Shown here: one piece after another, positions 3,301 through 22,587 of the stretch
Layout: every line of letters starts with the position of its first letter
How positions within the stretch are numbered: position 1 is the first letter of the stretch
Program-made: the position numbers and the translations under genes
Notes under the pieces: generated by a model
Database searches by the model: none
What the model was told of the DNA's origin: nothing
The model's input: the letters and a program-made list of their open reading frames with translations, nothing else
Assembly: GCA_047601445.1 (NCBI GenBank)
Contig: JASGJH010000001.1
Location: 3,200,001-3,264,000 of the forward strand
Origin: Myxococcales bacterium
GTDB lineage: Bacteria; Myxococcota_A; Polyangia; Polyangiales; DASUME01
Direction: 5' to 3'
DNA: 64,000 bases

Positions 3301-3864
3301 CTTGTCGCTCACCTGCTTTCGCGCGAGCACGCGACGAACACCTTCGGGCGGCGACTCCACGACGGCTTCGAACCAGGTCGCGAAGGAGCGCTCGAGCAAG
3401 GCGCGCGAACGTCCCGCGTCCAGCACTTCGAACGCTGGATCCACGCCTGCCTCGACGGGATGGGCCCGCAACAGGTCGCTGCACAGCCCATGGATGGTGC
3501 CGATGCGCGCTGCCTCGAGCTCCGACAGGGCCACGCGGAGGCGCGTCACTTCCTCCCCCGTGCGCGCGGCGTGCAAGAGCGCGCGATCGAGCTCGGTGCG
3601 GATGCGCAGCTTCATCTCACCGGCGGCCTTTTCCGTGAAGGTCACCGCCACGATGGATGAGAGCTTGCCGAGTCCACTCGCCACGATGGCCACGATGCGC
3701 TGCACGAGCTCGGTGGTCTTGCCAGTGCCGGCCGCAGCCTCCACGATGAGGGTGCGCTCGAGGCCGTGTCGGATCGCGAGCCGTGCCTCGCCATCGATCA
3801 GGCGTTCCACGTCCTGCTCGCGGTGAGCTGTCGCCGCGTGATTCTCAGGGAGACCTGAGCTCAC
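352..3864 (-). CDS. addA: AddA/RecB-like UvrD helicase-nuclease
   Basis: Walker A EAAAGTGKT, VTFTEKAAGEMK, DEFQDT, VGDPKQSIYRFR, MTVHTAKGLEF, YVAATRAK and C-terminal GVIDL...VVDFKT nuclease. GTG start overlaps the addB stop (GTGA at 3861-3864). Confidence 0.9.
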   Translation of the reverse strand: MSSGLPENHAATAHREQDVERLIDGEARLAIRHGLERTLIVEAAAGTGKTTELVQRIVAIVASGLGKLSSIVAVTFTEKAAGEMKLRIRTELDRALLHAARTGEEVTRLRVALSELEAARIGTIHGLCSDLLRAHPVEAGVDPAFEVLDAGRSRALLERSFATWFEAVVESPPEGVRRVLARKQVSDKGKAVRETLFQAVANLVETRDFTTSYRRDPFEREQAIAACLEELRGLSALAKGAGRGDPLAVALRGLGNKLGNARGLSLDALEEFLRQLAQDRSYKSELRGKPGRGEVFAGERSRAEVLSLRDAARAKLERFAEDAGADLAACLSRELLPAVDAYQREKARLGALDFFDLLLFTRRLIAEVHTVRATLQARVTHLFVDEFQDTDPVQAEILLLLAADDAATNDPWQAHSVPGKLFLVGDPKQSIYRFRRADVLLYERVKQHLVQQGAELVQLSTSFRSVPGIQQCVNGAFAALMTGNRESGQADYVPLAPFRSARERQPEVIALPVPEPYSPYGRITKGAIDASLPDAVAAWVDWLVRHSGYRVHEAGRDVPVEARHVCLLFKRFRSFEDDVTREYVRALEARRIPHVLSGGRSFHAREEIIALRAVLTAIEWPDDALHVYASLRGPFVALSDESLLSFKRKVRHLHPLGPVERDALEPAEREVAEVLELLAALHKSRNRRPIASTIASLLESLRAHAGIAIWPTGEQALGNVLRVLDFARSHERRGGVTSFRGFVEWLDRQAELAEAPEAPVIEEGSDGVRIMTVHTAKGLEFPVVVLCDPNAPRRVQRASRHIDGERRLWAQSLCDVEPRELIEQREHVRDQDESEVIRVAYVAATRAKEILVVPTCGDAVIEGWLDPLAPALYPAREAFRRPLGQAAGTPQFGGDSVVSWPMDAPHDPEQSVAPGLHQPQSGQHKVVWWDPNFLELKRPPVGGLTQQELLAADEQHGRDEQGRLNYERWVVGRHELRTRAASPSWLAQSITQAAHDELRAPVALAAELEVIDSGAQRVGRPSGARFGTLVHALLERGSSGTAADALSGLATFVGRGLGATPEEMERAVIDTRLALAHPLWERVRAADVRAEVYREFPVTLRAADGTLLDGVIDLAFRERDEQGRGSWVVVDFKTDVEVVDLRAYERQLALYCQALSDVFGEPCRALLFRV

Positions 3865-6800
3865 GGCATCCCCCGGACGCGGTGGAGCGGACTCAAGCGC
3901 AGCCCGTCCTGAGCCTTCACGCGTGCGACCCGCTCGGCCTCGTAGGGCCCACACACCACGCGGTAGGCACAGTGGTCGCACTCGGAGCTGCCCGCTCGAT
4001 GCTGCGGTGCCGCGGGCAAGAAGCCTTGCGCCACCATTCCGTCGATGGCGTTCACCAACTCCTGAGCGCGCTTGCGGTTGCCGTCATTGAGCGGCACGTC
4101 GTGGCTCTGGAAGCCCGCCTTGCTGGTGCAGAAATAGAGCCGGCCTGCGTCGACCTTGCTGCTCGGGAAGAGCTGCTCGAGTGCGAGCGCATAGAGCAGG
4201 GGTTGGAGCACACGTCCCCCGTCCGTGACGGCGAGGGCATTTTCCTGGGCTTTGCCGGTCTTGTGATCGGTGGCGCGCACGAGCGTGGGCGCGGCCGAGT
4301 CGGAGCCCGCGCTGCGCTCCACGAGATTGATGGCGCCGCGCAGCTTGAGCCCGACGGGCAAGAGCACGGGCTCGACCCGGCTGTGGGGGTCGCGCTCGAG
4401 TGAGGAGCGCAAGCCGAACCCGAGTTCGAAGCGCCAGGGGATCCAGCGTGCTTCATCCAGCATCCGCGCGAGCCACTCCTCGAGGTCCGCGCGCAGTGCC
4501 ACCAGCGAAGCGTCGAACACGCGTTCGACGGCGGGAGCGTAGGTCTCCTTGAGGGAAGCGACCTGGGCCACGAACACTTGTTCGAGCAAAGCCCGGGCGC
4601 GCGTGAGCCCCTCACGCGTGAGGGGCAGCAGCTGCTCGGCCGCGAGCCCGCTGAGGACATCGTGCTGAACCGCGTGAAAGAGTACGCCGCGCTGGCGCGC
4701 ATCGAGTTCGTCGAGCTCTGGCACTTGCTCCCGCTCGGCCACGCCCATCACCGAATGCAGGAAGAAGCGATAGGGGCAACTCGCGAACTGAGCCAGGGCC
4801 GAGGCCGAATACGGGCGCGCCGCGAGCCGCTCGCTAGCCATCAGGCGCGCGGCGCTCTCCTGGGAGAGCACGAGGCCATCGGCCTGCGTGAAGCGAGGAG
4901 TTTCCCAGCGGCGGGCCCGAAAGCGCAGGGCGCGCGCCAAGTTCGGGTTGGCGAGCAAAGAGTAGCGCGCACCGCCCTTGCGAGCGCCGGCCCGCGCACG
5001 CCACAGGTCGAGCACGGCCAGGTCGTACTCCGCGTCATCGATGGCCTGCTCGGGGGACGCCGGCGCGGGCCAGCCCATGCGCGCCGCCGCGCCCGGGTCG
5101 GCGCGGCGATTGAGCTCGTCGAACGCAGGCAACGCTCCGTCCACGGCATGCAGCACCTCGAGGCCGTAAAAGGAAGGCACCCGCGGACGCCCATGCTCCA
5201 CGTCGAAGCGCGGAAACGACAGCACCACCTGGCCACGCGCCGCGCCCACGGCGAGCCGCAAGAGCACGCGCTCGCGGGCCGCACGCTCTTCCGTGAGCAT
5301 CAGGTGCGGCCCGAGCGCGCGTCGCTTCGCATCCGGGAGAATGGGATCTTCGTGTAGCCGCGGCGGAAACACCTTCTCGGCCAGCCCCAGCACGAACACC
5401 TGCTCGAAACTGCGCCCGGCCGCGTCCTCCACGTCGCCCACGAACACCTTGCCCGCGCCATGCCCGCCGCTGCGCACGATGGCGGTGCCGAGGCGTCGGG
5501 AGAGCAGCCGCTCCACGTCGAGTAGCTCGACGGGTCCCACCGAAGCGAGCGGCGCGAGCTCGAGCAGCGCTTCGCGCACGCTCTCCGGGCGCTGCAGGCT
5601 ACGGCGCGCCAGGTCGTCCAGGGCCGCCAGCCACTCGCCCCAACTAGCCCGCTGCGGTAGGCCCGTCAGGCGATCGAGCAGCGGGAGGGCGAACTCGAGC
5701 AAGGCCGCGAGCTGGCCACGCTGCAAGGTGAGGGACGCGTGTCGAGGCCCCTCCGGCTCCGTGCCCACGAGCTCGAGATCCAGCTCGCACAACAAGGAGC
5801 GCAGCCGGCGCTCCCAGCGCGCGCGACCGCCGATCACCGTCGCATCCACGAGCAAGCGCTCCCAGCGCCGCGGACTGCGCGGCGTGCGCTCGCTATCGTC
5901 GTCGACGGCGGCGCCGGTGCGCGTGTCGTCGGGCTGCTCGTCGACCGCAGCCGGAGCCACGCCGAGCGAGAGATACTCCGCGAAGGCACGCGCCGAGAGC
6001 CCCTCGCGCGCGCAGGCGAGCAGCGCCAAGAAAGCCCGTCCTTCGGGCACCGGGCGCCGCACGCCATCGGCGAAGTGCGCCGGGATCTGCGCGCGCCGCA
6101 GCGCTTCCTCGACCGGGTCACGATAGGCGTCGGCTGCGCGCAGGAAGATCGCCATGCGATCGAAGGCTACGCCGCGCTCCGCCGCCGCCAAGATCTCGCG
6201 CGCCACCTCCACGGCCTCGCGGTTCTCGCCTGCGCCCGACATCAACTTCACGCGACCGCGCTCGGCCGCGGGACCACTCCCCGACAGGCTGGGCGCGAAG
6301 AGCTGACGCTTGAGTTGGGCCAGATCGTGGTCCTCGAGCGGGAACCGGCGCTCGGTCAGCGCGTCCTCTCCCAGCGAAAGTCGCCAGAAATGTTCGCTGT
6401 GTTCGTCGCCTCGCGCCACGCTCACGCGCGCCTGCAGACGCGCCCGACAAAGTGCGGCAGCGAACTCACTCTCGCGCGCGTGCACCAGTGGCACGTCGAG
6501 CACCACCAACGCGCAACGCGCGAGCGCGCGCCGTGGATCCGCCCCCAGCGCCTCACTCGCCAGCGCGAACAAGCGCGGGCGGTCGCACAGCTGCTCACGC
6601 TCGAGGGCCTCCTCGTAGCGCTGCAGAAACAGCGCTAATTCGCGGTCATGGGGAGCAAGCAGGGCTGTCGTGACCCCCGCCATGCGCAGCTCGATCAGGG
6701 CCTCGCTCAGCGCCCGCACGAAGCCAGGGCGCTGCCCGATCTCGCCGAAGCGCCCGAGCTCGCCGGTGCCCGAGAGCTCGAACACCACGCGCGCGCACAG

Positions 6801-7076
6801 CGCCTCTACTCCCACGCCGCGCAACAACGCGAGGCCCGCGCGCGCCAGGCTCGGCAGAGCAAACTCGAGCGCCGCGCTCTCGAGCGTGTGCTTGGCCCAG
6901 CCCGCGCGCGCCTGGCCCGGGCCGAGCACACGCTGCACGAGGGCGAGCCCCGAGAGGGGACTCGGCGCGAGAATCAGCGCGGGTTCTTGGGCAGGCAGGT
7001 CGCGCAGAAACGCCTCCGCGGCCGCGAGACGCTGCTCGCCGCACGGCGACTCGAACAAGCCTACGCTGCGCTTCAC
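3861..7076 (-). CDS. addB: AddB-like protein with C-terminal PD-(D/E)xK nuclease domain and Fe-S staple cysteines
   Basis: YSASALAQFASCPYRFFL, DHKTG, LQPLLYALA, CDHCAYRVVC; paired with addA; GTG start overlaps the upstream stop (7073-7076). Confidence 0.85.
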   Translation of the reverse strand: MKRSVGLFESPCGEQRLAAAEAFLRDLPAQEPALILAPSPLSGLALVQRVLGPGQARAGWAKHTLESAALEFALPSLARAGLALLRGVGVEALCARVVFELSGTGELGRFGEIGQRPGFVRALSEALIELRMAGVTTALLAPHDRELALFLQRYEEALEREQLCDRPRLFALASEALGADPRRALARCALVVLDVPLVHARESEFAAALCRARLQARVSVARGDEHSEHFWRLSLGEDALTERRFPLEDHDLAQLKRQLFAPSLSGSGPAAERGRVKLMSGAGENREAVEVAREILAAAERGVAFDRMAIFLRAADAYRDPVEEALRRAQIPAHFADGVRRPVPEGRAFLALLACAREGLSARAFAEYLSLGVAPAAVDEQPDDTRTGAAVDDDSERTPRSPRRWERLLVDATVIGGRARWERRLRSLLCELDLELVGTEPEGPRHASLTLQRGQLAALLEFALPLLDRLTGLPQRASWGEWLAALDDLARRSLQRPESVREALLELAPLASVGPVELLDVERLLSRRLGTAIVRSGGHGAGKVFVGDVEDAAGRSFEQVFVLGLAEKVFPPRLHEDPILPDAKRRALGPHLMLTEERAARERVLLRLAVGAARGQVVLSFPRFDVEHGRPRVPSFYGLEVLHAVDGALPAFDELNRRADPGAAARMGWPAPASPEQAIDDAEYDLAVLDLWRARAGARKGGARYSLLANPNLARALRFRARRWETPRFTQADGLVLSQESAARLMASERLAARPYSASALAQFASCPYRFFLHSVMGVAEREQVPELDELDARQRGVLFHAVQHDVLSGLAAEQLLPLTREGLTRARALLEQVFVAQVASLKETYAPAVERVFDASLVALRADLEEWLARMLDEARWIPWRFELGFGLRSSLERDPHSRVEPVLLPVGLKLRGAINLVERSAGSDSAAPTLVRATDHKTGKAQENALAVTDGGRVLQPLLYALALEQLFPSSKVDAGRLYFCTSKAGFQSHDVPLNDGNRKRAQELVNAIDGMVAQGFLPAAPQHRAGSSECDHCAYRVVCGPYEAERVARVKAQDGLRLSPLHRVRGMP

Positions 7077-7795
7077 CACCACCAAACCGCCACCACTCCG
7101 ATCACCGCCCAGCCACCCATGGACAGCAAGAGGCCCGACAAGGCGCGCGCCGTCTGGCCGCGCGCGCTCAAGGCACCGTAGAGCGCGAGCCCGCTCCAAA
7201 ACAAGCCCACAGGCAGCAAAAGTGGCCCCAGCACCGGGATCGCCAACGGGCTCAAGCCGTAGGCCGTGGCGCGCACCAGCACGTCGTAGCGCACGGCGAT
7301 CTGCAGCATCCGACACAGCGCCCACAGCCAGCCTGCGTAGACGGCTACGCCCAGTGAAAGCAGCGTGGAGAACACCAACGATGCCGGTACGAGCGAGACC
7401 GCCGTACCCAGCAGTCCCGTGCTGTGTAGCCCGAGACGCGGGGCGTCAGCCCAGGTGAGCAACGGGACTGCGCCCGCGATGGACAGCGGCAAGAGTCCGC
7501 ATACACCGCACAAGAACACGAATTGCAACGCATGCACCAGGTGACCCGCACCGCCGAGGCGGCGCCCCAGCGAAAACGGCCCAGCAAGGCCGGCGCGCAG
7601 GGTGTTCCAGAACGCGCGCGAGATCCCGAGCTCCCCGCGCTCCTCCCAGTCGACGGTGGCACGCACCACACAGCGATTGCACATCGCCACGGGCTCGAGC
7701 GGCGTACACAACCGGCACACGAAGTCCCCGCAGCGCACGCAGCTCGCTTCGGCCTCGGCGTCTCGATGCGTCGCGCAGCGCGCTAGTTGAGACAT
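7073..7795 (-). CDS. B-box-like zinc finger plus YIP1-like membrane protein
   Basis: CATH..CVRC..CRLC..CNRC followed by WEERGELG..AFW and several hydrophobic helices. Confidence 0.7.
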   Translation of the reverse strand: MSQLARCATHRDAEAEASCVRCGDFVCRLCTPLEPVAMCNRCVVRATVDWEERGELGISRAFWNTLRAGLAGPFSLGRRLGGAGHLVHALQFVFLCGVCGLLPLSIAGAVPLLTWADAPRLGLHSTGLLGTAVSLVPASLVFSTLLSLGVAVYAGWLWALCRMLQIAVRYDVLVRATAYGLSPLAIPVLGPLLLPVGLFWSGLALYGALSARGQTARALSGLLLSMGGWAVIGVVAVWWW

Positions 7796-7865: not shown

Positions 7866-9068
7866 TCACTCGAGCACGTAGAACGCGCGACCGTAGGTCT
7901 CGAGCAAGGACAGCGCCCTGTCCATCTCTTCGCGCGTGTGCCCGCGCGTGACGTTGAGGCGCAGGCGCTCGTCGCCGCGCTTCACCGCCGGGTACACCAG
8001 CGGCACCATCATCACGCCGTTCTCGAGCAGCGCCACGTGCATGAAGAGCGCCTTGGCCTCGTCGCCGCAGTTGGGGGGCATGATGTGCGTGTTGCTGCGG
8101 CCCAGGTTGAACCCGAGCTCGGTCAAGCTCTTGCGCATGTAGGCCGACTTCTCGTGGAGCTCCGCCACCAAAGCGGGCCCTTCCGCCTCGAGCATCGTCA
8201 GGATGGTCGACACCGCGGCCACCACCGGTACCGGCAGCGTGGCGCTGAACATGAAGGAGCGCGCCGAGTTCTTGATGTGCTCGATCACGTCGGTCGAGCC
8301 CAAGAGCAGCCCGCCGATGCCGCCGAAGACCTTGGAGAACGCCGTCATCAGCAGCGGCACGCGACCTTCGAGCCCGAAGTGCTCGAGCGTTCCGCGCCCG
8401 TTGTGGCCCAAGGTGCCCGAGCCGTGCGCATCGTCCACCAGGAGCACGGCGTTGTAGCGCTCGCAAACCTCGACGATCTCCGGCAGGGTCCCCATGTCGC
8501 CGTCGAGCGAGTACACGCCTTCCACCAGCACCAGGACGTTCTTGCGCTCCTTGGTCTTGAGCACGCGCTCGAGGGACTTGGCGGAATTGTGATTGAAGAA
8601 GCGCACCTCGGGAGCGCGCTTGGGGGTGCCCGCCGCCAGGAACGTGCCGTCCAAAATGCAGGCATGGCTCAGGTTGTCGAGCGCCAGCGTGGTGTCGCTG
8701 TCCGACAGGGCCATGATGGCCCCCACCATGGCCTGATAGCCGGTGGTGAACATGAGCGCGGCCGGGTAGCCGAAGAACTTGGCCAGGCGCTCCTCGAGCT
8801 CCACGTGGGCCGTGGTGGTGGCTTGCGGGCGCGAGCTCGAGAGTCCCATCGCGTACTTCTCGACAGCGGCCGCGGCGGCCTCCTTGACCTTGGGGTGCGT
8901 GGTCAGCCCGAGATAGTCGTTGGAGCTGAACTGCACGATGGGCTTGCCCGCGATGGACGTGCGTAGACCGCCGTTCTCGAACTCCCGAAAGAGCGGGTAG
9001 ACCTGCTTCTCCTTGGCCTCACGGATACGGGCCAGCTCTGCGTGCGCCTTCTCGTCGATCCAGTTCAT
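7866..9068 (-). CDS. PLP-dependent alpha-oxoamine synthase (SPT/BioF/KBL family)
   Basis: FSSNDYLGL, SHACILDG, VEGVYSLDGD, VDDAHG, AFSK (PLP lysine), RLRLNVT. Confidence 0.9.
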   Translation of the reverse strand: MNWIDEKAHAELARIREAKEKQVYPLFREFENGGLRTSIAGKPIVQFSSNDYLGLTTHPKVKEAAAAAVEKYAMGLSSSRPQATTTAHVELEERLAKFFGYPAALMFTTGYQAMVGAIMALSDSDTTLALDNLSHACILDGTFLAAGTPKRAPEVRFFNHNSAKSLERVLKTKERKNVLVLVEGVYSLDGDMGTLPEIVEVCERYNAVLLVDDAHGSGTLGHNGRGTLEHFGLEGRVPLLMTAFSKVFGGIGGLLLGSTDVIEHIKNSARSFMFSATLPVPVVAAVSTILTMLEAEGPALVAELHEKSAYMRKSLTELGFNLGRSNTHIMPPNCGDEAKALFMHVALLENGVMMVPLVYPAVKRGDERLRLNVTRGHTREEMDRALSLLETYGRAFYVLE

Positions 9069-10270
9069 GCCTGGTCTCTCTTCCTCAAGATCACCGCCGA
9101 AACGTTGCCGTAGTACCCAAGCGCAGTGATCAACACGTGGCGCACTTCGCGAGGGGCGTCACCGCGCAACAGAGGCTTCGGCTCAATGCCCGACAAAAAC
9201 CCGACCGCGGCCGCCATGCTTAGTGCCGCGGCCGCGCCAAACGTTTCGCCCCAAATGCCCTTTGTGGCCACGGTGGCCACATCCGAGCCGAACACGCGCG
9301 CCAAGCCCTCTTCTTCGGCCAGGTCCACGCGACTGACCCCGCTCGCGGCGCAGGCCACCAAATCCACCTGCTCGGGCTCGATCCCGGCATCGGCCAGGGC
9401 TGCGCGCACCGCGCGCTCCACCGTGACGTCCGAAGCATGCACCAGCTGCGCCTCCGAGAACGGCGGATCGAAGGCCGTTCCGAAGCCCACGATCTCCGCC
9501 CATACCTTGGCCCCGCGCGCCGCGGCGCTCTCGAGGCTCTCGCACACGAGCAACGCCGCCCCCTCGCCCAGGTGCGTGCCACGGCTCGTCACGTCGCCTG
9601 GTTCGGAAGGGCGGTCCCCTTCGCTGATCACGCCGAGCTTCTCGAAGGCGAGGTAGAGCGGCTCGCTCACCACCTCGGCGCCCCCCACCATTAGCGCATC
9701 GGCGCGCCCGCAGGCGATGTGGGTCTCTGCCGTGAGCACCGCGTTGGCGCCGCCGCAGTTGCCGTCGACGATAGTCACGTTGGGCCCTTCGAGCCCCTCC
9801 CAGATGCTCACGTAGCCCGCGGCACTGTTGATCACCGTGTTGGGAAAGCGCGACGGGTTCAGGTAGCGGGGATGCTCGAGCTCGGCCACGCGATTGATCT
9901 CGGTGATGCTGTCGAGGGAGCCGTAGGCCGTGGCCGCGCAGATGCCGAGCCGCTCGGGCCCCACACTCGCGAACGCCCCCTCACGCTTCAGTCCAGCGTC
10001 TTCCAGCGCGTGCTTGGCCGCCACCACCAACAGGCGCGTCATGCGGTCGAAGTTGCGCAGCCCCTTGTCACCCAGATACTGCGCCGCGTCGAAGTCGCTC
10101 ACCTCGGCCACGATGGCACGTGCGAAGCGCGCGTCCGTGAGCACACTGCGCGGCCCCGCGAACGCGCGCTTCTTGGCCGCGACCGGATCCGCCAGCGCCG
10201 CGAAGAAGGCCTCCCGCCCCACCCCCACCGGACTGACCACCGAGAGTCCCGTAATCGCCAGTGGATGCAT
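9065..10270 (-). CDS. Catalytically inactive ketosynthase (chain-length-factor-like)
   Basis: Thiolase/KS fold motifs (ITGLSVVSPVGVG, GEGAALLVCE); the Cys/His/His positions read GNCGG, ACAASG and KGIWGE. Confidence 0.8.
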   Translation of the reverse strand: MHPLAITGLSVVSPVGVGREAFFAALADPVAAKKRAFAGPRSVLTDARFARAIVAEVSDFDAAQYLGDKGLRNFDRMTRLLVVAAKHALEDAGLKREGAFASVGPERLGICAATAYGSLDSITEINRVAELEHPRYLNPSRFPNTVINSAAGYVSIWEGLEGPNVTIVDGNCGGANAVLTAETHIACGRADALMVGGAEVVSEPLYLAFEKLGVISEGDRPSEPGDVTSRGTHLGEGAALLVCESLESAAARGAKVWAEIVGFGTAFDPPFSEAQLVHASDVTVERAVRAALADAGIEPEQVDLVACAASGVSRVDLAEEEGLARVFGSDVATVATKGIWGETFGAAAALSMAAAVGFLSGIEPKPLLRGDAPREVRHVLITALGYYGNVSAVILRKRDQA

Positions 10271-11523
10271 CAAGTGCTCCCGGCACCGCGCCGCGCGACG
10301 GGCACCGGCAGAATCCCTGGCTTCGCGAACGTGACGACCGCGTCATATCCCCCGAAGGCCAGCGCATTGTTGAGCACGATGTCGGCCTTGCCGGCACGCG
10401 CCTGATTGCGCACCACCTCCACGTCGCACTCGGGGTCGGCTTCTTCGTGATGGATGGTGGGCGGGTAGATGCCGGTCAAAATGGTCTCCACGCAGGACAC
10501 CGCCTCGAGCGCGCTGGCCGCACCCATGCAGTGCCCCACCATGCTCTTGATGCTCGAGATCGGCACCCGGCGTCCCTCGAACACTTCCTTGATCACCACG
10601 CTCTCCACTTGATCGTTGGCGGGTGTGCCCGTCCCATGGGCGTTCACGAAGTCCACTTGCCCGTGCGTGAGTCCGCTGGCCGCGATGGCCTCGCGCATGG
10701 CCCGGATGCTGCCCTTGCCCTCGGGATGCGGGCGCGTGATGTGATACGCGTCGCAGGCCAGTCCGTAGCCGCCGACTTCCGCGAGCAGGTTCGCGCCGCG
10801 ACGCCTGGCGTGCTCCTCCGATTCCAGCACCAGCACGGCCGCGCCCTCGCCGATCAGCAACCCCTTGCGGTTCTTGTCGAACGGCTGACAGTACTCGGGA
10901 GCGATGGCTCCGAGCCGCACGAAGCCCGCGAACTGCACCTTGTCGAGGATCTCGCTGGCGCCCGTGATCACCACGTCGGCGCGCCCTGCCCGAATCTGAT
11001 CGAGGGCGAAGCCGATGGCGTAGTTGCCTGCCGCGCAGGCGGCCGGCAGGGTCTGGACCAGGCCGCGTGCACCCACCGCGCGCGCCACGTGTACCGGCAA
11101 CAGCGTGGTCCCGTAGCGAGCCAACTTGCTGGTGGCCACGGCCTCTTCGCCGCGGTGCAGCCAGGCGCTCTCGAGCTCGGAGATCACGTCGACCTCGCCC
11201 ATGGTGGTGCCGAGCACCACGCTGGCACGCTCGCTGGCGAGGTTGGCCTGCGCGAGCCCCGCGTCTTCGACGGCCATGCGCGCTGCCGCGATGGCGAATG
11301 CCGAACAGCGACCGGCACGACGCGCCTCGGCCGCGCTCAGATGATCGCGTGGACGAAAGTCGGGCACCTCGCAGGCTCGATCTCGACCGAGGTCCTTGGG
11401 GTCGAACAGGGAGACCGTGCGCGCCCCGGAACGACCTTCCAAGAGCGCTTGCCAGAAGGCTTTTCGACCAAGCCCCAGGGAGCTAACCACCCCCATGCCG
11501 GTCACGTACACGCGGCGTGACAT
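10270..11523 (-). CDS. Beta-ketoacyl-ACP synthase II-type ketosynthase (active)
   Basis: AACAAG, NAHGTGT and KSMVGH triad intact; start MSRRVYVTGMG. Confidence 0.9.
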   Translation of the reverse strand: MSRRVYVTGMGVVSSLGLGRKAFWQALLEGRSGARTVSLFDPKDLGRDRACEVPDFRPRDHLSAAEARRAGRCSAFAIAAARMAVEDAGLAQANLASERASVVLGTTMGEVDVISELESAWLHRGEEAVATSKLARYGTTLLPVHVARAVGARGLVQTLPAACAAGNYAIGFALDQIRAGRADVVITGASEILDKVQFAGFVRLGAIAPEYCQPFDKNRKGLLIGEGAAVLVLESEEHARRRGANLLAEVGGYGLACDAYHITRPHPEGKGSIRAMREAIAASGLTHGQVDFVNAHGTGTPANDQVESVVIKEVFEGRRVPISSIKSMVGHCMGAASALEAVSCVETILTGIYPPTIHHEEADPECDVEVVRNQARAGKADIVLNNALAFGGYDAVVTFAKPGILPVPVARRGAGST

Positions 11524-11659
11524 TGGGCTTGGCGGTTTACCCCAGGGCTCCCCCAAGCGCCAGCATGACGCAGACGCAAGAGTGAATCGGAAGCGAGACA
11601 GCGGAGGGCGTCCACAGACCATGCGGCGGGCGCCGACGCATGCTAAGCGGTGGGCCCCT

Positions 11660-13351
11660 ATGGTCGATGTTCCCCGCACCTTCGTCGAGGCTCTGGAACG
11701 GCTGCCAGCCGGGGAACAAAGAGGATTCCGCTTCGTCACCTCGACTGGGGACGAGCTCTTCTTATCCTATGACAGCCTGCGCCGCGAGGCGACGCGACGG
11801 GCGGGCCTGCTGGCCGAGGCCGGCGTGGCCAAGGGCGATCGCGTGGCCCTGGTCATCCCGGAGGGGCACGACTTCGTGCTCAGCTTCTTGGCCGCAGTCA
11901 TCGCCGGCGCGGTCCCGGTCCCGATCTTTCCGCGCGCGACTTTCAAGGCCAGCTCGGACTACGTCGACTCGGTAGCGCACATCACGGAGGCCAGCGGCGC
12001 ACGCATCCTGCTGTCGGGCGCCGCCAACGCCGAGCTGGTTCAACCAGCTAAGCAGCGCGTGCCCGGGTTGGCCGAAATCGCCGTCACCGAAGCGCTGTTC
12101 ACACCGGAACGCGCCAGCGCGAGCTTCGCTCCGCCAAAAATCGACTCGGCGGATCTGTGCTTTTTGCAGTTCACCTCGGGGAGCACGGCTCGTCCCAAGG
12201 GAGTGATGGTCAGCCATGGCAACCTGATCGCCAATGTCACCTCCTTCCTCGGCCCCCACGGGCTAGCCCGCCGCGACGACGACGTGGGCGTCAGCTGGCT
12301 CCCGCTCTTTCACGATATGGGCCTGATCGGCTTCGTGTTGGGCCCCCTGGTGGTCGACATTCCGGTGGTGCTCCTGCCCACGGCCACCTTCGCACGCGGC
12401 CCGCGCATCTGGCTCGAGACCATCCACAAGCACCGCGGCACCATCACCTACGCGCCCAACTTCGCCTACAGCCTGGCTCTCAAGCGGCTCAAGCCCAAGG
12501 ACGTCGAGTCCCTCGATCTATCGTGTCTGCGCATCGCGGGCTGCGGCGCGGAACCCATCCACGCCGAGACCTTGCGCAGCTTCGCCCGGGCGCTCGCACC
12601 CGCCGGCTTCAAACCCGAGGCGCTCTTGCCCAGCTACGGCATGGCGGAGTCCACCCTCGCGATCAGCTTTCATCCGCGGGGTACGCCCATGGAGGTCGAT
12701 CGCGTCGATTCGACGGCACTGCGAAAAGGGCACGCCAGCCCAGCCCCGGAAGCTGCCGCCGACGACAGCCTGGAGGTCGTCAGCTGTGGTGTCCCCTTCC
12801 CCGATCACGAGCTGCGCATCGTCGACGAGCAAGGCCAGGTCCTGCCCGAGCGGCAGGTCGGCCAGGTGCTCGCGCGGGGACCGAGCGTGTGTCTCGGCTA
12901 CTTCGAGAATCCCGAAGCGACCTCCGCCAGCTTCCCGAACGACGGCTTCCTGCACACGGGCGATCTCGGTTACCTGGCGGACGGAAAGCTGCACATCTGC
13001 GGACGCCTGAAGGACCTCATCATCATCCGTGGCGCCAACTTCCATCCACAGGACCTCGAGTGGGCGGTCTCCGAGATCGAGGGCGTCCGGCGGGGGAACG
13101 TGGTCGCTTTCAGCACCCCTATTTCGGGGGAAGAGCGCCTGGTGCTCGCAGTGGAGTGCGCCTCATTCGAGGCGTCCCAAGTCCGAGCCCGGGTGGCCGC
13201 CAGGGTAAACGAAGCTTTTGGCCTGACGCCCCATCACGTGGCAACTGTAACTGTAGGAAGCTTGCCAAAGACTTCGAGTGGGAAGCTACAGAGAGCGAAG
13301 ACTCGCGATTTGTACATTGGCCAACAGTTGGACGAGCACGCCGAGTCATGA
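11660..13351 (+). CDS. Fatty acyl-AMP ligase (FAAL)
   Basis: FLQFTSGSTARPKGV, SWLPLFHDMGLIG, PNFAY, YGMAESTL followed by the FAAL insertion, TGDLGY, GRLKDLII, PKTSSGKLQR. Confidence 0.9.
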   Translation: MVDVPRTFVEALERLPAGEQRGFRFVTSTGDELFLSYDSLRREATRRAGLLAEAGVAKGDRVALVIPEGHDFVLSFLAAVIAGAVPVPIFPRATFKASSDYVDSVAHITEASGARILLSGAANAELVQPAKQRVPGLAEIAVTEALFTPERASASFAPPKIDSADLCFLQFTSGSTARPKGVMVSHGNLIANVTSFLGPHGLARRDDDVGVSWLPLFHDMGLIGFVLGPLVVDIPVVLLPTATFARGPRIWLETIHKHRGTITYAPNFAYSLALKRLKPKDVESLDLSCLRIAGCGAEPIHAETLRSFARALAPAGFKPEALLPSYGMAESTLAISFHPRGTPMEVDRVDSTALRKGHASPAPEAAADDSLEVVSCGVPFPDHELRIVDEQGQVLPERQVGQVLARGPSVCLGYFENPEATSASFPNDGFLHTGDLGYLADGKLHICGRLKDLIIIRGANFHPQDLEWAVSEIEGVRRGNVVAFSTPISGEERLVLAVECASFEASQVRARVAARVNEAFGLTPHHVATVTVGSLPKTSSGKLQRAKTRDLYIGQQLDEHAES

Positions 13352-13493
13352 AATAGGCAGCTTGTCTGAATTTGTAGAAGGATTGGACGCGTCGATAGCT
13401 GGCCCGTAGAGTTCGCGCGATTAAAGCGTCGAGCCCTCAGTGTTCCAAAACGGAACGTGGCTTCGGAACGTGTCCTGGAGAAGCAATCTGTCT

Positions 13494-13745
13494 ATGAAGC
13501 GCCCTCAACTGATCAAGCTCTTCCGCGACTTGGCGAGTGAGATCGCTGAGAAGGACCTGAGCTTCGTGCAGGAGGAAAGCGCCATCGCTGACCTCGGCAT
13601 TGACTCCCTCGCCATGCTGGAACTGGTGGGCACGATGGAGCGCGAACTGCGTATCCGGGTACCCGACGAGCAGCTGGTGGGACTCGAAACGGTGCGTCAG
13701 CTTCTCGAGCTGGTGGAGCGGCGTCTGCCGCAGAGCGCAGCCTGA
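13494..13745 (+). CDS. Acyl carrier protein 1
   Basis: 83 aa acidic protein with DLGIDSLAMLEL (phosphopantetheine Ser). Confidence 0.9.
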   Translation: MKRPQLIKLFRDLASEIAEKDLSFVQEESAIADLGIDSLAMLELVGTMERELRIRVPDEQLVGLETVRQLLELVERRLPQSAA

Positions 13746-13784
13746 GTTCGGGACTACCGCTGAGCCAAGCGAGACTGGAAACGC

Positions 13785-14012
13785 ATGATGGAACTTAAAG
13801 AGAAGCTGCGCGCGATCGTGGCGGAAGTCAGTGAGATCGACCTGATCCCCGACGAGACGCCCTTCGCCGATCTCGGGATCGACTCGATGATGGCGCTGGA
13901 GATCGTGGCCGAGGTCGAGCGCACCTACAAGGTCAGCGTGCCCGAGGATGAACTCAAGGGTCTGACCAACTTCCAGTCGGTCTACAACCTGTTCGCCGCC
14001 AAGCTCAGCTGA
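13785..14012 (+). CDS. Acyl carrier protein 2
   Basis: 75 aa with DLGIDSMMALEI. Confidence 0.9.
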   Translation: MMELKEKLRAIVAEVSEIDLIPDETPFADLGIDSMMALEIVAEVERTYKVSVPEDELKGLTNFQSVYNLFAAKLS

Positions 14013-14267
14013 GAGGACTCGGGGGCTGCACCTGGTATCGACTCGATACCGGCCGCGGTCGCGCTCTTGAGACCTAGGCTGCGGTTCGGAAGGGGACGGC
14101 TTTACCGGTGCCGCTGACAGGCACCGCAGAGGCACGTCCCCTTTGGCCTTTTCGGTGCCCAGCGCGGCCTTCGCAGGGGCCTGTACGGGGGGCGGTCAGC
14201 GCGGTCTCCACGGTGGGTCATTTTGGTTATCGACTTCCGGGTAGATTTTCATAGACTCGCCCGTCGA

Positions 14268-14867
14268 ATGGGTCGCCCCAAGGCCAGCAGCATCGATGAA
14301 GCCACCCGCGAGCGCCTGCTCGGGGCCGCCGCGCGAGCCTTCGGCTCGTCGGGCTTCAATGGTGCGCGACTCGAAGACATCGCGGCCGACGCGGGCATCC
14401 GACGTTCTTCCCTGCTCTATCACTTCGACAGCAAGCAGACGCTCTACACGGCGGTGCTCGAGCACGCATTCGGGGAGCTGGAGCGGCGCATGGAGATCAC
14501 CATGGCCTCGGCGGACAGCTTCGAGGCGCGCCATCAGAGCTTGGTGGAGGGGATGATCGCCTTCGAGCACGAGCACCAACCGCTCCTGCAGGTGCTGATG
14601 CGCAGCCTGCTCGATCACGACGAGTCGAGCGCCGCCCTGTTGGAGCGCTCCTTCGTGCCACTGGTGGATCGCATCGAGCATTTCATGCGCGTGGGCGCGG
14701 GCGACGCCCTACCCGCGAACTTCCCAGTGCGCGCCGCCATCCTGCAGCAGATCGTGGGCCACCTGGTGCGCTCCGCGATGGGCGCGGCGGGCGAGATGCT
14801 GTGGCGCGGCGAAGCGCATTCCTGGACCCTGGCGCAGGCACTCCTGCGCGGAGCAACGAGACCGTGA
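14268..14867 (+). CDS. TetR/AcrR family regulator
   Basis: N-terminal HTH RLEDIAADAGIRRSSLLYHFDSK. Confidence 0.9.
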   Translation: MGRPKASSIDEATRERLLGAAARAFGSSGFNGARLEDIAADAGIRRSSLLYHFDSKQTLYTAVLEHAFGELERRMEITMASADSFEARHQSLVEGMIAFEHEHQPLLQVLMRSLLDHDESSAALLERSFVPLVDRIEHFMRVGAGDALPANFPVRAAILQQIVGHLVRSAMGAAGEMLWRGEAHSWTLAQALLRGATRP

Positions 14868-14984
14868 CCACGCGTCCCAACGGTCGAAGAGCGCCCTCGG
14901 GCGCGCGAGCGGAGATTGGAGGCATGCGTGCCTGAAGCAGCAGTGACGAAACTCGAGAGCAAGCAGAAGAAGTCGGAGCGTTCC

Positions 14985-15515
14985 ATGGACCTTCCCTCGC
15001 CCACCTACGCCGCCCAGCGCGCCTACGTGGCCATCATGTTCGAGACCATCGGGCGTCTGCTCGAGGCGGCATCGCAGAGCGATGCGGAGATCGCGCGCGA
15101 GCTCGAGGGCTATCGGGACGGCTTCTCGATCGGCTTCTCGGTGCTCGGTGATCCCAAGCTGAAGATGCGGGTCGGCGTGCGCAATGGCCGCTTCGTGCGG
15201 CTGCCGAGCAGCATCCATCCCGAGCTCGAGATCGTGTTCAAGCACATCACGTTCGCGTTCTACGTGCTCAGCTTCAAGGAGAGCACCTCGCGCGCCTATG
15301 CCAACGAGCGCATGCTGACCCACGGCGATACGGCCCATGCCCTGCGCTTCGTGCGCTGCATGAACCGTATGCAAGCCGTGGCGCTGCCGCGCTTCGTGGC
15401 GAACCGGGCGCTCAAGGGCTTCCCGGACATCACCGCGCCCGAAAAGCGCAAACTCGTGACCGACCTCTACGTGAAACTTTTGAGCGGATTCGTGACCCGG
15501 AGCAAATTGCCATGA
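14985..15515 (+). CDS. Hypothetical protein, possibly SCP2-like fold
   Basis: Stop overlaps the ADH start (ATGA); ELEIVFK...RMLTHGD pattern is reminiscent of SCP2; start uncertain. Confidence 0.6.
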   Translation: MDLPSPTYAAQRAYVAIMFETIGRLLEAASQSDAEIARELEGYRDGFSIGFSVLGDPKLKMRVGVRNGRFVRLPSSIHPELEIVFKHITFAFYVLSFKESTSRAYANERMLTHGDTAHALRFVRCMNRMQAVALPRFVANRALKGFPDITAPEKRKLVTDLYVKLLSGFVTRSKLP

Positions 15516-16696
15516 GCGGTTCTTATTTCGAGTTCTTCTGTCCCGTGAAGATCGTGGCGGGTTTCGCCGCGCTCGAGCACATCGCCTACGAGCTCGGCGC
15601 GCGCAGCGCCAGCAAGCCGCTCATCATCACGGATAAGGGCGTGCGCAGCGTGGGTCTCGTGGAGGTCGTGCAAAACGCCCTCAAGAGCGCCGGCGTGTCG
15701 GCGCCACTGGTGTTCGACGACGTGCCCCAGGACAGCGCGACCAACACCGTGACGGCGATTGCCAAGCTGTACCGCAGCGAGGGCTGCGACTCGATCATCG
15801 CCATCGGCGGCGGCTCCGTGATCGACACGGCCAAGGCAGCGAACATTCTGGCCTCCGAGGGTGGTCAGGATCTCACGGCCTACGCGGGCACGAACGTGGT
15901 GAAGCGTCGCCTGCGTCCGCTGTTCGTGCTGCCCACCACGAGCGGCACGGGCTCCGAGGTCACCGCGGTGTCGGTGGTGAAGGACTCGAACTCGGGCATG
16001 AAGTTGCCGTTCGTGTCGCCCTATCTGTTGCCCGACGTGGCCGTGCTCGACCCGCGCATGACCATCGGCTTGCCGCCGTTCTTCACGGCCGCCACGGCCA
16101 TGGACGCGATGACCCACGCCGCCGAGGCCTTCACCTGCCTGGGCAAGAATCCGCTCAGCGACAGCTACGCCAAGGCCGCGATCCAGAAGGTCGCCAGCAA
16201 CGTGGTGGCAGTGCTCGACGAGCCGTCCAACAAGGAGCGCCGACTCGAGCTGGCACTGGCGGCCACCATGGCGGGCATCGCGTTCTCGAACAGCATGGTC
16301 GGCATGGTGCACGCACTCGGCCACACCATCGGCGCGGTAACCCACGTGCCCCATGGCGTATGCATGAGCATCCTCTTGCCGTACGCGCTCGAGTACAACC
16401 TCGACGCGCGCCGACAGGTCATCGGCGAACTCCTGTTGCCGCTCGCTGGCCCGGACGTCTACGCCAAGACCCTGGAGCGCGACCGTCCGCAGGCAGCCAT
16501 CACGGCGATCCGCAGCTTGCGCGAGGCGCTGTGGCAGAAGGCCAAGCTGCCGCGCTCGTTGAGCGAGACAGGCAAGATCACGCGGGACCAGTTGCCGGAG
16601 ATCGCACGCCTCTCGCTGGACGATGGCCCCATGATCATGAACCCGGTCGAGGTCAGCTATCAGGATGCCTTGCGCGTTCTCGAGCGTGCGTTCTGA
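15512..16696 (+). CDS. Iron-containing alcohol dehydrogenase
   Basis: GGGSVIDTAK, PTTSGTGSE, DAMTHAAE, HALGH, VPHG. Confidence 0.92.
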   Translation: MSGSYFEFFCPVKIVAGFAALEHIAYELGARSASKPLIITDKGVRSVGLVEVVQNALKSAGVSAPLVFDDVPQDSATNTVTAIAKLYRSEGCDSIIAIGGGSVIDTAKAANILASEGGQDLTAYAGTNVVKRRLRPLFVLPTTSGTGSEVTAVSVVKDSNSGMKLPFVSPYLLPDVAVLDPRMTIGLPPFFTAATAMDAMTHAAEAFTCLGKNPLSDSYAKAAIQKVASNVVAVLDEPSNKERRLELALAATMAGIAFSNSMVGMVHALGHTIGAVTHVPHGVCMSILLPYALEYNLDARRQVIGELLLPLAGPDVYAKTLERDRPQAAITAIRSLREALWQKAKLPRSLSETGKITRDQLPEIARLSLDDGPMIMNPVEVSYQDALRVLERAF

Positions 16697-16727
16697 AGAC
16701 GGTGGCGGTCCAGGGACCGCCGCTGCT

Positions 16728-16880
16728 CCCGTGTTCGTATTCGTCTCGTAAGGCGTAGTCGTGCGCGTGCGGCTACGCGTGCGCGTGTCAGCGCGGAGCG
16801 GCGAGGCTTGTGTGCCGTCGCCGTCAAAGTTCACGTTAGGTTCACGTCGACGTCGACGACCACCTCAACGTGAACACGGG
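16728..16880. repeat. Low-complexity palindromic intergenic element (CGT/ACG hexamer-periodic)
   Basis: cccgtgttc (16728) is complementary to gaacacggg (16872); gttcacgtt and aacgtgaac also pair; lies between convergent genes. Confidence 0.55.
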
Positions 16881-16886
16881 ATCGCC

Positions 16887-18260
16887 CTACGGATCCGCGA
16901 GTACCTTGGTGGCGGCTACTTCGCCGCTGCGGATGGCATCGGGGATGCCGACGCCCCGGTAGGCGTTGCCGGCCAAGGCGAAGCCCGCGTGCTTGGCGGT
17001 CAGCGCTTCGATGCGCGCCACGCGCGCCAGGTGGCCGAGCTTGTACTGGGGCATGGCCCGCTCGTAGCGGACCACCCGCGCCCACTTGGGCTCGGCCCGA
17101 ACGCCCATCAGGACGGCCAGCTCCCGCCTGGCGAGTTCGATCAGCTCGGCATCTCGCCAAAGGGCACGCTCCTGCCCCTTGTAACCACCCACGAACACGC
17201 GGATGAGCGCCTTGTCGGCCGGCGCCCGCCCCTCGTACTTCACACTGGCCCAGGTGGAGGCCAAGATTTGGCAGGACTCGCGCGCGGGTACCACGAAGCC
17301 GAACGCATCCATGGCATGGGGCACTTCGCTGCGCTCCCATAGACAGGTCACGGTGGCCGCCGACGCATACTCGATGTCGGAGAGCTCCGCCGCGAGCTTG
17401 GCGTCGAACGCTTGCACGCAGCGCGCCGCCCGGTGCGCGGGCAAGGCGAGCACCACGCGCTCGAATTCTCGCTCGGCGCCGCCAACGGTGACGCGAAAGC
17501 CCGCCGCGTCCCTGGCCACCGCGCTGACCGGCTGCTCCGTGTGGATGACGCCTGAGAGCTCCTTGGCGAGCGCGTCGATGAGCTCCTGCATTCCACCGCG
17601 AAAGGCCACGAACATGCCGTAGCGGGCCCCGGAAGACTGCTCGCTCGCCTGCTTCGCGCGCTGCCTCAATCCCAAGATTACCGAGCGGTGATCGCGCTCG
17701 AGCTCGAGGAAACGCGGCATGGTGGCGCTGAGCGAGAGCGAAGCGGGGTCGGCCCCGTAGATGCCACCCACCAGAGGCTGCGCCAGCTGGTCGAGGGCTT
17801 CGCGGCCAAAGCGTCGCGAGACGAAGCCCTCCAGGCTTTCGTCTTCGCGCGCGCGTCCTCGCGGCAACACCAGGTCCAGGCCCATGCGCAGCTTGCCGGG
17901 CCACGAGAGCAGCGGTGAACGCGCCATGGCGGCCAGATCGGTGGGAGCCATCAACGAGAAGCCCTCGGGCACCCGCTCCAGGACGCCCTCGTGCACGATG
18001 TAAGCGCCCCGCGGAGAGGTCCGCGTTCGGATCAAGCTCGGCTCGAGCCCGAGTTCACGCGCAAGGGCCACGCCCCAGGGCTTCTCCGTGAGGATCGAGT
18101 CGGCGCCGGTCTCCACCACACACTCGTCGATGCGCTGACTGCCGAGCAGGCCGCCGATCCGAGCGGAGGCTTCGAACAACTGCACCTGTGCACCGGCCCG
18201 CTGCAGCCGGAAAGCCGCGCTGAGTCCGCTGATGCCACCGCCGATGACGCACACTCTCAT
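16887..18260 (-). CDS. hemY: Protoporphyrinogen/coproporphyrinogen oxidase, HemY type
   Basis: GGGISGL FAD motif, ETGADS, GGIYGAD, AMPQY, GVGIPDAI; lies in the hem cluster. Confidence 0.92.
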   Translation of the reverse strand: MRVCVIGGGISGLSAAFRLQRAGAQVQLFEASARIGGLLGSQRIDECVVETGADSILTEKPWGVALARELGLEPSLIRTRTSPRGAYIVHEGVLERVPEGFSLMAPTDLAAMARSPLLSWPGKLRMGLDLVLPRGRAREDESLEGFVSRRFGREALDQLAQPLVGGIYGADPASLSLSATMPRFLELERDHRSVILGLRQRAKQASEQSSGARYGMFVAFRGGMQELIDALAKELSGVIHTEQPVSAVARDAAGFRVTVGGAEREFERVVLALPAHRAARCVQAFDAKLAAELSDIEYASAATVTCLWERSEVPHAMDAFGFVVPARESCQILASTWASVKYEGRAPADKALIRVFVGGYKGQERALWRDAELIELARRELAVLMGVRAEPKWARVVRYERAMPQYKLGHLARVARIEALTAKHAGFALAGNAYRGVGIPDAIRSGEVAATKVLADP

Positions 18261-19228
18261 GGCACTTCGCGTTGCTCGCTGTGGACGGCCGCTATCACGC
18301 TGTCGGCGAGAGCGCGAATGAACGCCGGATGAGTGCCGAGCGTACTCGCGCGCACGAAGCCGAGGCCGAGACTCTCAGCATGTCTGCGAGCCTCGATGTC
18401 GAGGTCGTAGAGCACCTCCACGTGGTCGCACAGAAAACCGATGGGCAGCGCGACCACGTCTTCGACGCCACGTTGCTTGGCGGCAGTCAAGGCATCGAGC
18501 ACGTCGGGCTCGAGCCACGGCTCGCGCGGGTTGCCGCTGCGACTCTGGTACACGAGTGAGGATCGGCCGCAGAGATCGAACCGAGCCGCCACGCGGCGCG
18601 TGGTTTCGTCGAGCTGAGACACATAGGGCGAACCGCTCGCCATGGCCTGGGGAATGCTGTGCGCCGTGAATAACACCTCGGCCCGCGCGCGGCGCGCACT
18701 GGGCAGCGTGGCGAGTGCCTGCTCCAGGTGTTCAACATGGGCTTCCACGACGGCGTCCGACAAGCCGAAGCCGCGCACCAGACGCAGCACGGGCGCGTCT
18801 GCTCCAAGCTCCGCGCGCGCCTTTTCGACGGCAGCCACGTAGCGGGCCAGGGAGGCCTCGGTTTCCTGCGCGGCCATGATCAACCCGAACACCTCACGAT
18901 GGCCACCTGCGCGAAAGGCCTCCAGGCTGTCCTTCAGCCAGGGAGACCAGTGACGCATCCCCACGCGAACCTCGAGCGGATGTCCGCGCGCAGCGAGCTC
19001 TCGGCTCAACAGCTCGGCCTGGCGCTCGGTATGCGCGGTGATGGGCGAGCTGCCGCCGAGCAACTCGTAGTGGTGCACCACCGACTCGAAGCGCTCCTCC
19101 GGCACTGGACGCCCCTCGAGCACGTTCCGCAAGAAGGGTCGGACGTCCTCGATCTTGTGAGGGCCACCGAAGGCGATCACGAGGAGCCCGCGCACCGTCG
19201 AGGCGGACGTCGCGCTCGTGCTAGTCAT
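18257..19228 (-). CDS. hemH: Ferrochelatase
   Basis: AFGGP, FTAHSIP, YQSR, WLEPD, GFLCDHVEVLYDLD. Confidence 0.93.
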   Translation of the reverse strand: MTSTSATSASTVRGLLVIAFGGPHKIEDVRPFLRNVLEGRPVPEERFESVVHHYELLGGSSPITAHTERQAELLSRELAARGHPLEVRVGMRHWSPWLKDSLEAFRAGGHREVFGLIMAAQETEASLARYVAAVEKARAELGADAPVLRLVRGFGLSDAVVEAHVEHLEQALATLPSARRARAEVLFTAHSIPQAMASGSPYVSQLDETTRRVAARFDLCGRSSLVYQSRSGNPREPWLEPDVLDALTAAKQRGVEDVVALPIGFLCDHVEVLYDLDIEARRHAESLGLGFVRASTLGTHPAFIRALADSVIAAVHSEQREVP

Positions 19229-20245: not shown

Positions 20246-20284
20246 CGGCGCCCATCTTACTGCGCGCCGGGGGGGCGTCTACTG

Positions 20285-21139: not shown

Positions 21140-21178
21140 GCGGCAAGCCTGACCACTCCGGGCGCGCTTGGCCAGCGG

Positions 21179-22585: not shown

Positions 22586-22587
22586 GG

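Follow-up and report, generated by a model that had tools for sequence, protein, structure and literature searches.

A divergent six-gene locus of Polyangiales that probably builds the long-chain base of membrane ceramides

What is made by a bacterial locus that combines the parts of a sphingolipid pathway with those of a type II polyketide synthase? A 64,000-nucleotide stretch of the Myxococcales bacterium assembly GCA_047601445.1 (contig JASGJH010000001.1, positions 3,200,001 to 3,264,000 of the forward strand; hereafter the window) raises this question with six genes that encode a fatty acyl-AMP ligase (FAAL), two acyl carrier proteins (ACP1 and ACP2), an active ketosynthase (KS), a dead KS resembling a chain-length factor (CLF) and a pyridoxal-phosphate (PLP) alpha-oxoamine synthase (AOS). 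Our answer, which we consider probable, is that the locus makes the long-chain base of the membrane ceramides of Polyangiales, with the FAAL loading a fatty acid, KS/CLF extending it on ACP2, and AOS condensing the chain with an amino acid, likely serine. The gene calls, positions and divergent gap of the preliminary description of this DNA are confirmed, and all six open reading frames are uninterrupted in two divergent arms:

7866-9068, minus strand: AOS, PLP alpha-oxoamine synthase, 400 amino acids (aa), PF00155
9065-10270, minus strand: dead KS, chain-length-factor-like (CLF), 401 aa, with Cys/His/His replaced by Asn171/Ala308/Glu342
10270-11523, minus strand: active KS, 417 aa, Cys163-His296-His331
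11524-11659: divergent intergenic region, 136 bp
11660-13351, plus strand: FAAL, fatty acyl-AMP ligase, AasR-like, 563 aa, top NCBIfam match PRK09192
13494-13745, plus strand: ACP1, acyl carrier protein, PF00550
13785-14012, plus strand: ACP2, acyl carrier protein, PF00550

Both junctions on the minus strand are stop-start overlaps (1 nucleotide, TGATG, between KS and dead KS; 4 nucleotides, ATGA, between dead KS and AOS), as in a coupled operon, and KS, CLF and AOS are thus translationally coupled. No sigma-70 consensus site was found in the 136-bp gap, and a terminator of note was not found either.

The distribution of the locus shows what kind of pathway it belongs to. An AOS orthologue (65-74% identity) is present in 37 of 48 other genomes of the same order and in 0 of 252 genomes outside the order in a phylum-wide sample, and the relatives that carry names are Polyangiales and Sandaracinaceae records. 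Among 201 genomes of the order, we find an AOS orthologue in 158 (123 of the 152 of good quality) and a dead-KS match in 136, and the dead-KS profile matches 0 of 199 genomes outside the order; the 201 include one unpublished genome, G383, which adds one to each of the AOS, dead-KS, cluster-FAAL and ceramide-synthase counts and on which nothing else rests. The loci of 33 relatives were taken from the 37 orthologue genomes. KS, CLF and AOS are all present in 22 of them, ACP2 in 32, ACP1 in 15, FAAL in 14 and all six genes in 10, and in 10 loci ACP2 is the only partner, back to back with AOS. The AOS-CLF-KS order with a divergent ACP2 recurs in 22 of the 33, so the arrangement is not due to chance, and the complete 1.8-Mb genome G095 keeps all six genes. 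This is a near-core, order-wide housekeeping lipid locus and not a rare natural-product cluster. The stand-alone pathway first proposed for these genes is to be replaced by a membrane-lipid locus whose KS/CLF pair is dispensable in one genus (g4), and the co-conservation of the genes across 33 loci and 201 genomes agrees with the sphingoid-lipid reading of the same proposal. Cluster copies in L237, L238, L240, L242 and L243 show many frameshifts over several genes, probably through assembly error, which accounts for some misses in the counts (G312, G317, G408).

The reaction carried out by AOS is suggested by the genes that it accompanies and by the one that it excludes. A conventional gene resembling serine palmitoyltransferase (Spt) is found in 28 of the 201 genomes (28 of the 152 of good quality) and in none of the 158 AOS carriers, and one gene or the other is present in 151 of the 152 good-quality genomes (123 + 28). 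A homologue of the ceramide synthase YghO/bCerS is present in 191 genomes (147 of good quality). In at least eight genomes (G100, G105, G125, G190, G275, G447, G449 and G451), it is found downstream of the conventional Spt-like gene, either next to it or no more than about 1.2 kb away, and the gene order in L226 is Spt-bCerS-epimerase; long reading frames that precede the conventional Spt-like genes gave no ACP or other Pfam domain. In G302 (L186), it is the AOS orthologue that is the divergent neighbour of bCerS. The genome under study has two YghO/bCerS homologues with 35-37% identity to E. coli YghO (G000:C1:1020985-1022106, L181, and 1464558-1465691, L182). YghO is located in the spt locus of E. 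coli B, and we take it to be the ceramide synthase; Pfam and NCBIfam give no match for it or for the two homologues. The CerR candidate of this genome, at C1:9052393, is the best match there of four CerR-type queries. Of its six oxoamine-synthase-like matches, two are BioF-like (one beside bioD), and there is no other Spt candidate. The search for oxoamine synthases in G095, G041 and G130 yielded AOS and a BioF beside bioD and no others, and two genomes of genus g16 carry further paralogues. Given its order-wide spread, its exclusion of the Spt-like gene, the ceramide-synthase homologue in nearly all genomes and the separate BioF, AOS very probably represents a Polyangiales-specific clade that fills an Spt-equivalent role. 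The second BioF-like gene (L071:6760-8067; 433 bits, just over the cut-off) lies away from the bio genes, beside a polyketide-cyclase/START-like gene.

Ceramides may stand in for lipid A in this order. LpxC over the cut-off was found in 0 of the 201 genomes; a weaker full-length LpxC-like gene (84-127 bits) occurs in 33, mostly in families f2 and f68. Sorangium is said to be without lipopolysaccharide and to use sphingolipids. In Caulobacter, sphingolipids are reported to sustain lipid-A-free cells (PMC9393093).

AOS contains the complete residue set of fold-type I PLP enzymes (Asn, His, Asp, His, Lys, Arg), and these catalytic residues (Asn50, His135, Asp212, His215, Lys246 and Arg370) are kept in 15 of 15 aligned orthologues. 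Its best PDB match, by a narrow lead, is the serine SPT of Sphingobacterium (3A2B, 236 bits), and it is 33% identical to E. coli Spt. Ser79 and the F-S-A stretch align as in 3A2B, and serine is likely to be the amino-acid substrate; valine in the place of Ser79, before the conserved arginine, is presumably a Kbl signature. In a quick tree of 58 rows, AOS groups with the Spt-like enzymes (95 by the SH-like approximate likelihood-ratio test, SH-aLRT). In the best tree, computed on 36 of these rows (the long-branch paralogue L073 and 21 others being left out), AOS and the Spt-like enzymes are split from BioF and Kbl with support 98.2/98, E. coli Spt being the only named Spt in the AOS tree. A Kbl-clade gene adjoining tdh forms a branch separate from AOS. 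Databases label the relatives of AOS 8-amino-7-oxononanoate synthase or glycine C-acetyltransferase.

What would a ketosynthase pair contribute to such a pathway? One active and one dead KS had been predicted at this place, and the residues bear this out: the triad Cys163-His296-His331 of KS is invariant in 13 of 13 aligned orthologues, and its partner has Asn, Ala and Glu at these positions. KS scores 399.5 bits, below the fabF cut-off of 493.75 that two other genes of this genome pass, and judged by these scores it is not the housekeeping FabF. Its best PDB matches are 9S5H chain B (412 bits), the ishigamide KS 6KXD (328) and FabF (297), and that of the dead KS is 9S5H chain C (176 bits, with the next match at 154). 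We tie 9S5H and 9S5I to the Brocadia heterodimer of anammox bacteria by residue numbers, not by code (bioRxiv 10.64898/2026.05.19.726425); in that preprint, the KS/dead-KS pair is active only as a heterodimer, decarboxylates malonyl-ACP and forms acetoacetyl-ACP. The Polyangiales dead KS keeps the Phe-x-x-Thr-Val tunnel residues of the anammox dead KS (F142, T145, V146), and it is under purifying selection, with 149 synonymous vs 69 non-synonymous codon differences from a same-genus relative. KS and dead KS are predicted to work as a heterodimer. A monomer model from the pair has a predicted local distance difference test score of 87 and is confident except at residues 117-147, the dimer-interface motif; a fold search of the dead-KS model (library to April 2026) returned generic FabF folds only, with 9S5H absent among the matches listed. 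By profile search, the dead-KS family extends widely and takes in many KS-CLF fusions (about 800 aa) in other phyla, so that the anammox proteins are the nearest solved ones, which makes them neither the nearest relatives nor a sign of ladderane-cluster membership. Named KS-CLF fusions in the family (P0148-P0270) come from Paenibacillus and Moorella, and its free-standing members include some from Poribacteria.

The ligase of the other arm resembles one that serves Spt elsewhere. The top NCBIfam match of the FAAL is the fatty acyl-AMP ligase PRK09192 (519/600) and its best PDB match is 3PBK, which also matches the E. coli spt-locus ligase over its full length; with the E. coli ligase as query, the cluster FAAL is the best match in this genome. 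AasR, the ligase of the known system, is reported to load a private ACP for Spt (PMC9386255). The two ACPs are indeed distinct, as had been noted (37-39% identical, both with the D-S motif). The best PDB matches of ACP2 are 7QV0_D, 9S5I_E and 7AUF, of which 7QV0 is the amxFabZ-amxACP complex of anammox (PMC10139942). Its near-constant presence beside AOS makes ACP2 the likely dedicated carrier for both KS/CLF and AOS, and ACP1, lost in some lineages, is likely to be the starter or acceptor carrier. Some loci have genes inserted among the ACPs, namely an acyl-ACP desaturase (L050, L244 and L146/L203, the last two from one genome) and a cyclopropane-synthase-like methyltransferase (L036, L244), and many have a 4HBT thioesterase after ACP2; all of these are enzymes acting on acyl chains. 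The fullest form of the cluster, L244:12794-17510 (G308), has FAAL, cyclopropane-synthase-like methyltransferase, ACP1, acyl-ACP desaturase, ACP2 and thioesterase in one run. In seven loci of family f2 (L037, L040, L045, L048, L049, L051, L204), a third ACP, distinct from the other two, stands downstream of AOS in convergent orientation.

Put together, these parts would form a pathway in which the FAAL loads a fatty acid onto ACP1 (or ACP2) as its private carrier, the acyl group moves to Cys163 of KS, and condensation with malonyl-ACP2, the extender, takes place in the KS/CLF tunnel. FabG, FabZ and enoyl reductase of the host would complete each cycle in trans (a FabZ over the cut-off is encoded elsewhere in this genome). 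AOS would then join the extended chain to serine by decarboxylative condensation, and N-acylation of the resulting 3-keto base would fall to the YghO/bCerS homologue and its reduction to the CerR homologue, giving ceramides that would stand in for lipid A. In some lineages, the carrier-bound chain may be tailored by the desaturase, the cyclopropane-synthase-like methyltransferase or the thioesterase. That chain extension feeds AOS is what we infer from the makeup of the locus, and parallels from elsewhere bear on this step.

In the myxobacterial family f16, of another order, a single run (L228:7580-15096, L231-L234) contains a FAAL-ACP-KS(-acyltransferase) protein, a FabG-like short-chain dehydrogenase/reductase (SDR), a second SDR, an ACP, a Spt-like AOS and a FabA/Z-like dehydratase, with the domains scanned fully for L228 and L234. 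The five genomes with this module have bCerS in 5/5 and bioD in 0/5, and no other oxoamine synthase was found in them. The same Spt-like clade stands beside an ACP and bCerS in L229, L235 and L236, with a CerR-like gene in two of these. Analysis of the f16 run suggests a full extend-and-reduce module, with type I parts, that would feed a Spt-like enzyme by convergence with the Polyangiales locus. In G026 (L230:6733-16043), a KS + dead-KS pair of another kind, with a gene resembling 2-oxoacid-dehydrogenase acyltransferases, is divergent from an OPT transporter, Spt-like, bCerS and CerR-like genes. In the light of the type I module of f16 and the KS/dead-KS pair near Spt in G026, pre-extension is the most parsimonious explanation for the KS/CLF of Polyangiales. 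A ceramidase-like gene is found next door in L230. In family f36 (L064:7185-12362, L065, L209), a Spt-like gene follows a fused LptF-LptG gene and is flanked by an SDR and a 2-oxoacid-dehydrogenase-acyltransferase-like gene; these loci, without bCerS, possibly use another route to N-acylation and reduction. The genome under study also has two clusters of acyl-CoA dehydrogenase, adenylate-forming ligase, small carriers and KS (L074:3716-8282 and L075:5345-11110), unrelated to the six-gene locus.

Several observations weigh against the proposed ceramide-base pathway and have to be set beside this evidence. For AOS itself, the score lies below every NCBIfam cut-off [score/cut-off: bioF (TIGR00858) 321/426, SPT-CFB (NF047600) 314/640, Kbl 287/460 and 237/493, and the other Spt families NF047599 268/500 and NF047603 210/670], with bioF on top by a small margin; AOS thus passes no Spt family cut-off, and the bCerS-adjacent conventional Spt-like genes of Polyangiales also miss it (450/640). 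The loop after Arg80 is remodelled (S-S-R-x-Q-A-T for G-S-R-x-x-N-G-T), which bears on the choice of amino acid. The approximately unbiased (AU) test, on the same 36 rows as the best tree, leaves AOS+BioF (p 0.076) and AOS+Kbl (p 0.12) unrejected, so phylogeny alone is not decisive; the sphingoid-lipid reading holds against a BioF or Kbl assignment through the separate BioF and the best tree. The mutual exclusion of AOS and the Spt-like gene goes back to one or two replacements among related genomes, and AOS adjoins bCerS in 1 of 80 mapped cluster loci (a few genomes being counted twice).

Gene content supplies further points on this side. Genus g4 has ACP2 and AOS in 27/27 genomes and CLF in 0/27, and the cluster-type FAAL is absent, which means that extension is not required for AOS. 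The FAAL, ACPs, thioesterase, KS and CLF are still clustered in family f65 and parts of f78 with AOS located elsewhere, which allows them a role apart from AOS. The FAAL and ACP1 segregate separately across the 33 loci (FAAL without ACP1 in 4, ACP1 without FAAL in 5), a loss pattern that contradicts the strict FAAL-to-ACP1 pairing proposed at first. The cluster contains no ketoreductase (KR), dehydratase (DH) or enoyl reductase gene by domain scan, confirming what had been noted of the first two, and no conserved KR or DH was found beside it in the 33 loci. Nor was the opposite-charge interface of the anammox pair found, both helix-loop-helix motifs being net negative or near neutral. The anammox pair itself (bioRxiv 10.64898/2026.05.19.726425) showed in vitro no sign of elongation; its crosslinking was strongest with C8, which it preferred over C16.

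Some of these points are accommodated if AOS and ACP2 alone make up the Spt step, and KS/CLF, with FAAL, ACP1 and the thioesterase, makes another chain (the ceramide N-acyl chain, or some special fatty acid that stays free) or only passes acyl groups from one carrier to another, with no lengthening. In favour of this are the loss of KS/CLF in genus g4, where ACP2 and AOS are kept, the FAAL-ACP1-ACP2-thioesterase-KS-CLF run that persists in f65 with no AOS adjacent, the 4HBT gene behind ACP2 in many loci, and the lack of elongation by the anammox pair in vitro. We regard such a division as unlikely, though worth keeping in view: KS, CLF and AOS are translationally coupled here and form one run in 22 of the 33 loci, the KS triad is invariant, and CLF was found in 0 of the 28 conventional-Spt genomes, which implies that CLF was lost together with AOS.

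Alternatively, KS/CLF may act as a highly reducing type II synthase that works iteratively: beginning with a short starter, it would assemble most of the chain on ACP2, and double bonds might be left in place (an enoyl or polyene product), which would make the base unsaturated from the outset. The nearest solved KSs, those of anammox and of the ishigamide polyene, would fit such an enzyme, as would the C8 preference of the anammox pair and its ability to initiate from malonyl-ACP, the tunnel residues kept in the dead KS, and five loci that have KS/CLF and both ACPs without a FAAL. Polyene and anammox clusters, however, have the dedicated KR or DH that this locus lacks, and the FAAL resembles long-chain ligases; we judge this version improbable.

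The absence of KR and DH from the cluster can also be read after the logic of RedL and PigJ-PigH, which share the parts list (ligase, ACP, KS, ACP, oxoamine synthase): an unreduced beta-ketoacyl-ACP2 would go straight to AOS, and the amino-diketone would cyclise to an alkyl-pyrroline or stay as an extra-oxygenated base. A single-copy, order-wide locus that is kept in a 1.8-Mb genome, an AOS that swaps with Spt and works without KS/CLF in g4, the lack of a conserved RedK-like reductase nearby in the 33 loci, and an f16 parallel that has reductases and a dehydratase all speak against this, and leave it very improbable.

Hardly credible is a pimeloyl-ACP pathway in which AOS is the BioF of biotin synthesis (or a Kbl), for which the top bioF score, the database labels, the AU test and a bioB about 5 kb from AOS in g4 could be cited, since this genome has a separate bioF next to bioD, as do 17 of 18 checked loci, genus g16 keeps AOS (8/8) and CLF (8/8) where bioD (0/8) and bioB (0/5) were not found, and AOS excludes Spt and not BioF. 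As for Kbl, AOS is below both Kbl cut-offs, has Ser79 and not Val, and is on another branch than the tdh-linked gene.

If the ceramide-base pathway is correct, it supplies the missing first ceramide step for about four-fifths of the genomes of this large order, which inhabits soil, sludge and the sea and in which our survey revealed no canonical LpxC; it also implies that a whole clade, at present annotated as BioF or Kbl, escapes Spt searches that rely on cut-offs. A chain-building step upstream of Spt would be added to bacterial sphingolipid synthesis, and a KS/CLF/ACP triad otherwise solved only from genetically inaccessible anammox bacteria would gain a second setting, in culturable organisms. 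Extension by KS/CLF upstream of Spt is the step predicted here, and it is so far undescribed for bacterial ceramides; a literature search with most subscription journals outside its coverage found no description of this locus, and a wider Spt-like clade has been reported from metagenomes (PMC11334938). It is possible, though we would not call it probable, that without canonical lipid A the Polyangiales custom-build their ceramide base, with a ladderane-type KS/CLF/ACP setting its length, desaturases and methyltransferases tailoring it, and a new Spt clade releasing it; polyketide-style pre-extension would then have arisen at least two times, and the anammox triad would have a housekeeping counterpart in culturable bacteria.

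The surroundings of the cluster are ordinary. The window carries an AddA/AddB-like helicase-nuclease pair at 352-7325 (minus strand) and, at 7073-7795 (minus strand), 70 bp downstream of AOS in the same direction, a 240-aa membrane protein with a Cys/His-rich N-terminus, which has no Pfam or NCBIfam match and was not found in the 33 relatives' loci. At 14223-24265 lie genes for a TetR protein, a 199-aa unknown protein, an iron alcohol dehydrogenase, a protoporphyrinogen oxidase-like protein, ferrochelatase, HemE, HemD, a Mur-ligase-family protein, AccD and a laccase-domain protein. The membrane protein, TetR and the alcohol dehydrogenase are not common to the 33 loci, in which epimerase, hexapeptide transferase and MaoC genes near the cluster are mostly confined to genus g4.

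Among known systems, the locus works most like AasR-AcpR-Spt with bCerS and CerR of Caulobacter crescentus and E. coli B (PMC9386255, PMC11087976), to which it would add a new synthase clade, KS/CLF and a second ACP. Both have a dedicated ligase, a dedicated ACP and a PLP oxoamine synthase, the closest solved relative of the FAAL is the E. coli spt-locus ligase, and bCerS- and CerR-like genes are present in this genome; they differ in the second ACP and KS/dead-KS pair of the Polyangiales operons, in an AOS that forms a separate clade under all Spt cut-offs, and in the position of bCerS and CerR outside the Polyangiales locus. The amxFabF2/amxFabFmut/amxACP proteins of the proposed anammox ladderane cluster I give the best PDB match for KS, dead KS and ACP2 alike, and have in common with the Polyangiales locus an active KS beside a triad-less partner and the tunnel residues of the dead subunit. 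The amxFabZ, phytoene-dehydrogenase-like and B12 radical SAM genes of that cluster are neither in the window locus nor conserved in the 33 loci, and the Polyangiales locus has a FAAL and an oxoamine synthase and lacks the opposite-charge helix-loop-helix pair; no ladderane product is implied. The ishigamide Iga11/Iga12 and aryl-polyene KS/CLF systems likewise join a KS, a dead KS and their own ACP, and supply the second-best KS match (6KXD, 328 bits), but the Polyangiales locus is near-core, single-copy and without a dedicated KR or DH; the aryl-polyene-type cluster of this genome is elsewhere (L079). RedL and PigI/PigG/PigJ/PigH of prodiginine synthesis (PMC11188435) follow the same course of adenylation, carrier, KS extension on a second carrier and release by an oxoamine synthase, whereas the Polyangiales proteins are free-standing, have no acyltransferase or RedK, follow the ceramide genes in their distribution, and include a dispensable KS part. 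CFAT/CapB/SulA of sulfonolipid synthesis (PMC13692747) is, in turn, a Spt-related clade that makes a long-chain base, and indicates that such clades can switch amino acid; AOS scores lower to CFAT than to SPT (208 vs 236 bits) and has Ser79 and F-S-A as in 3A2B.

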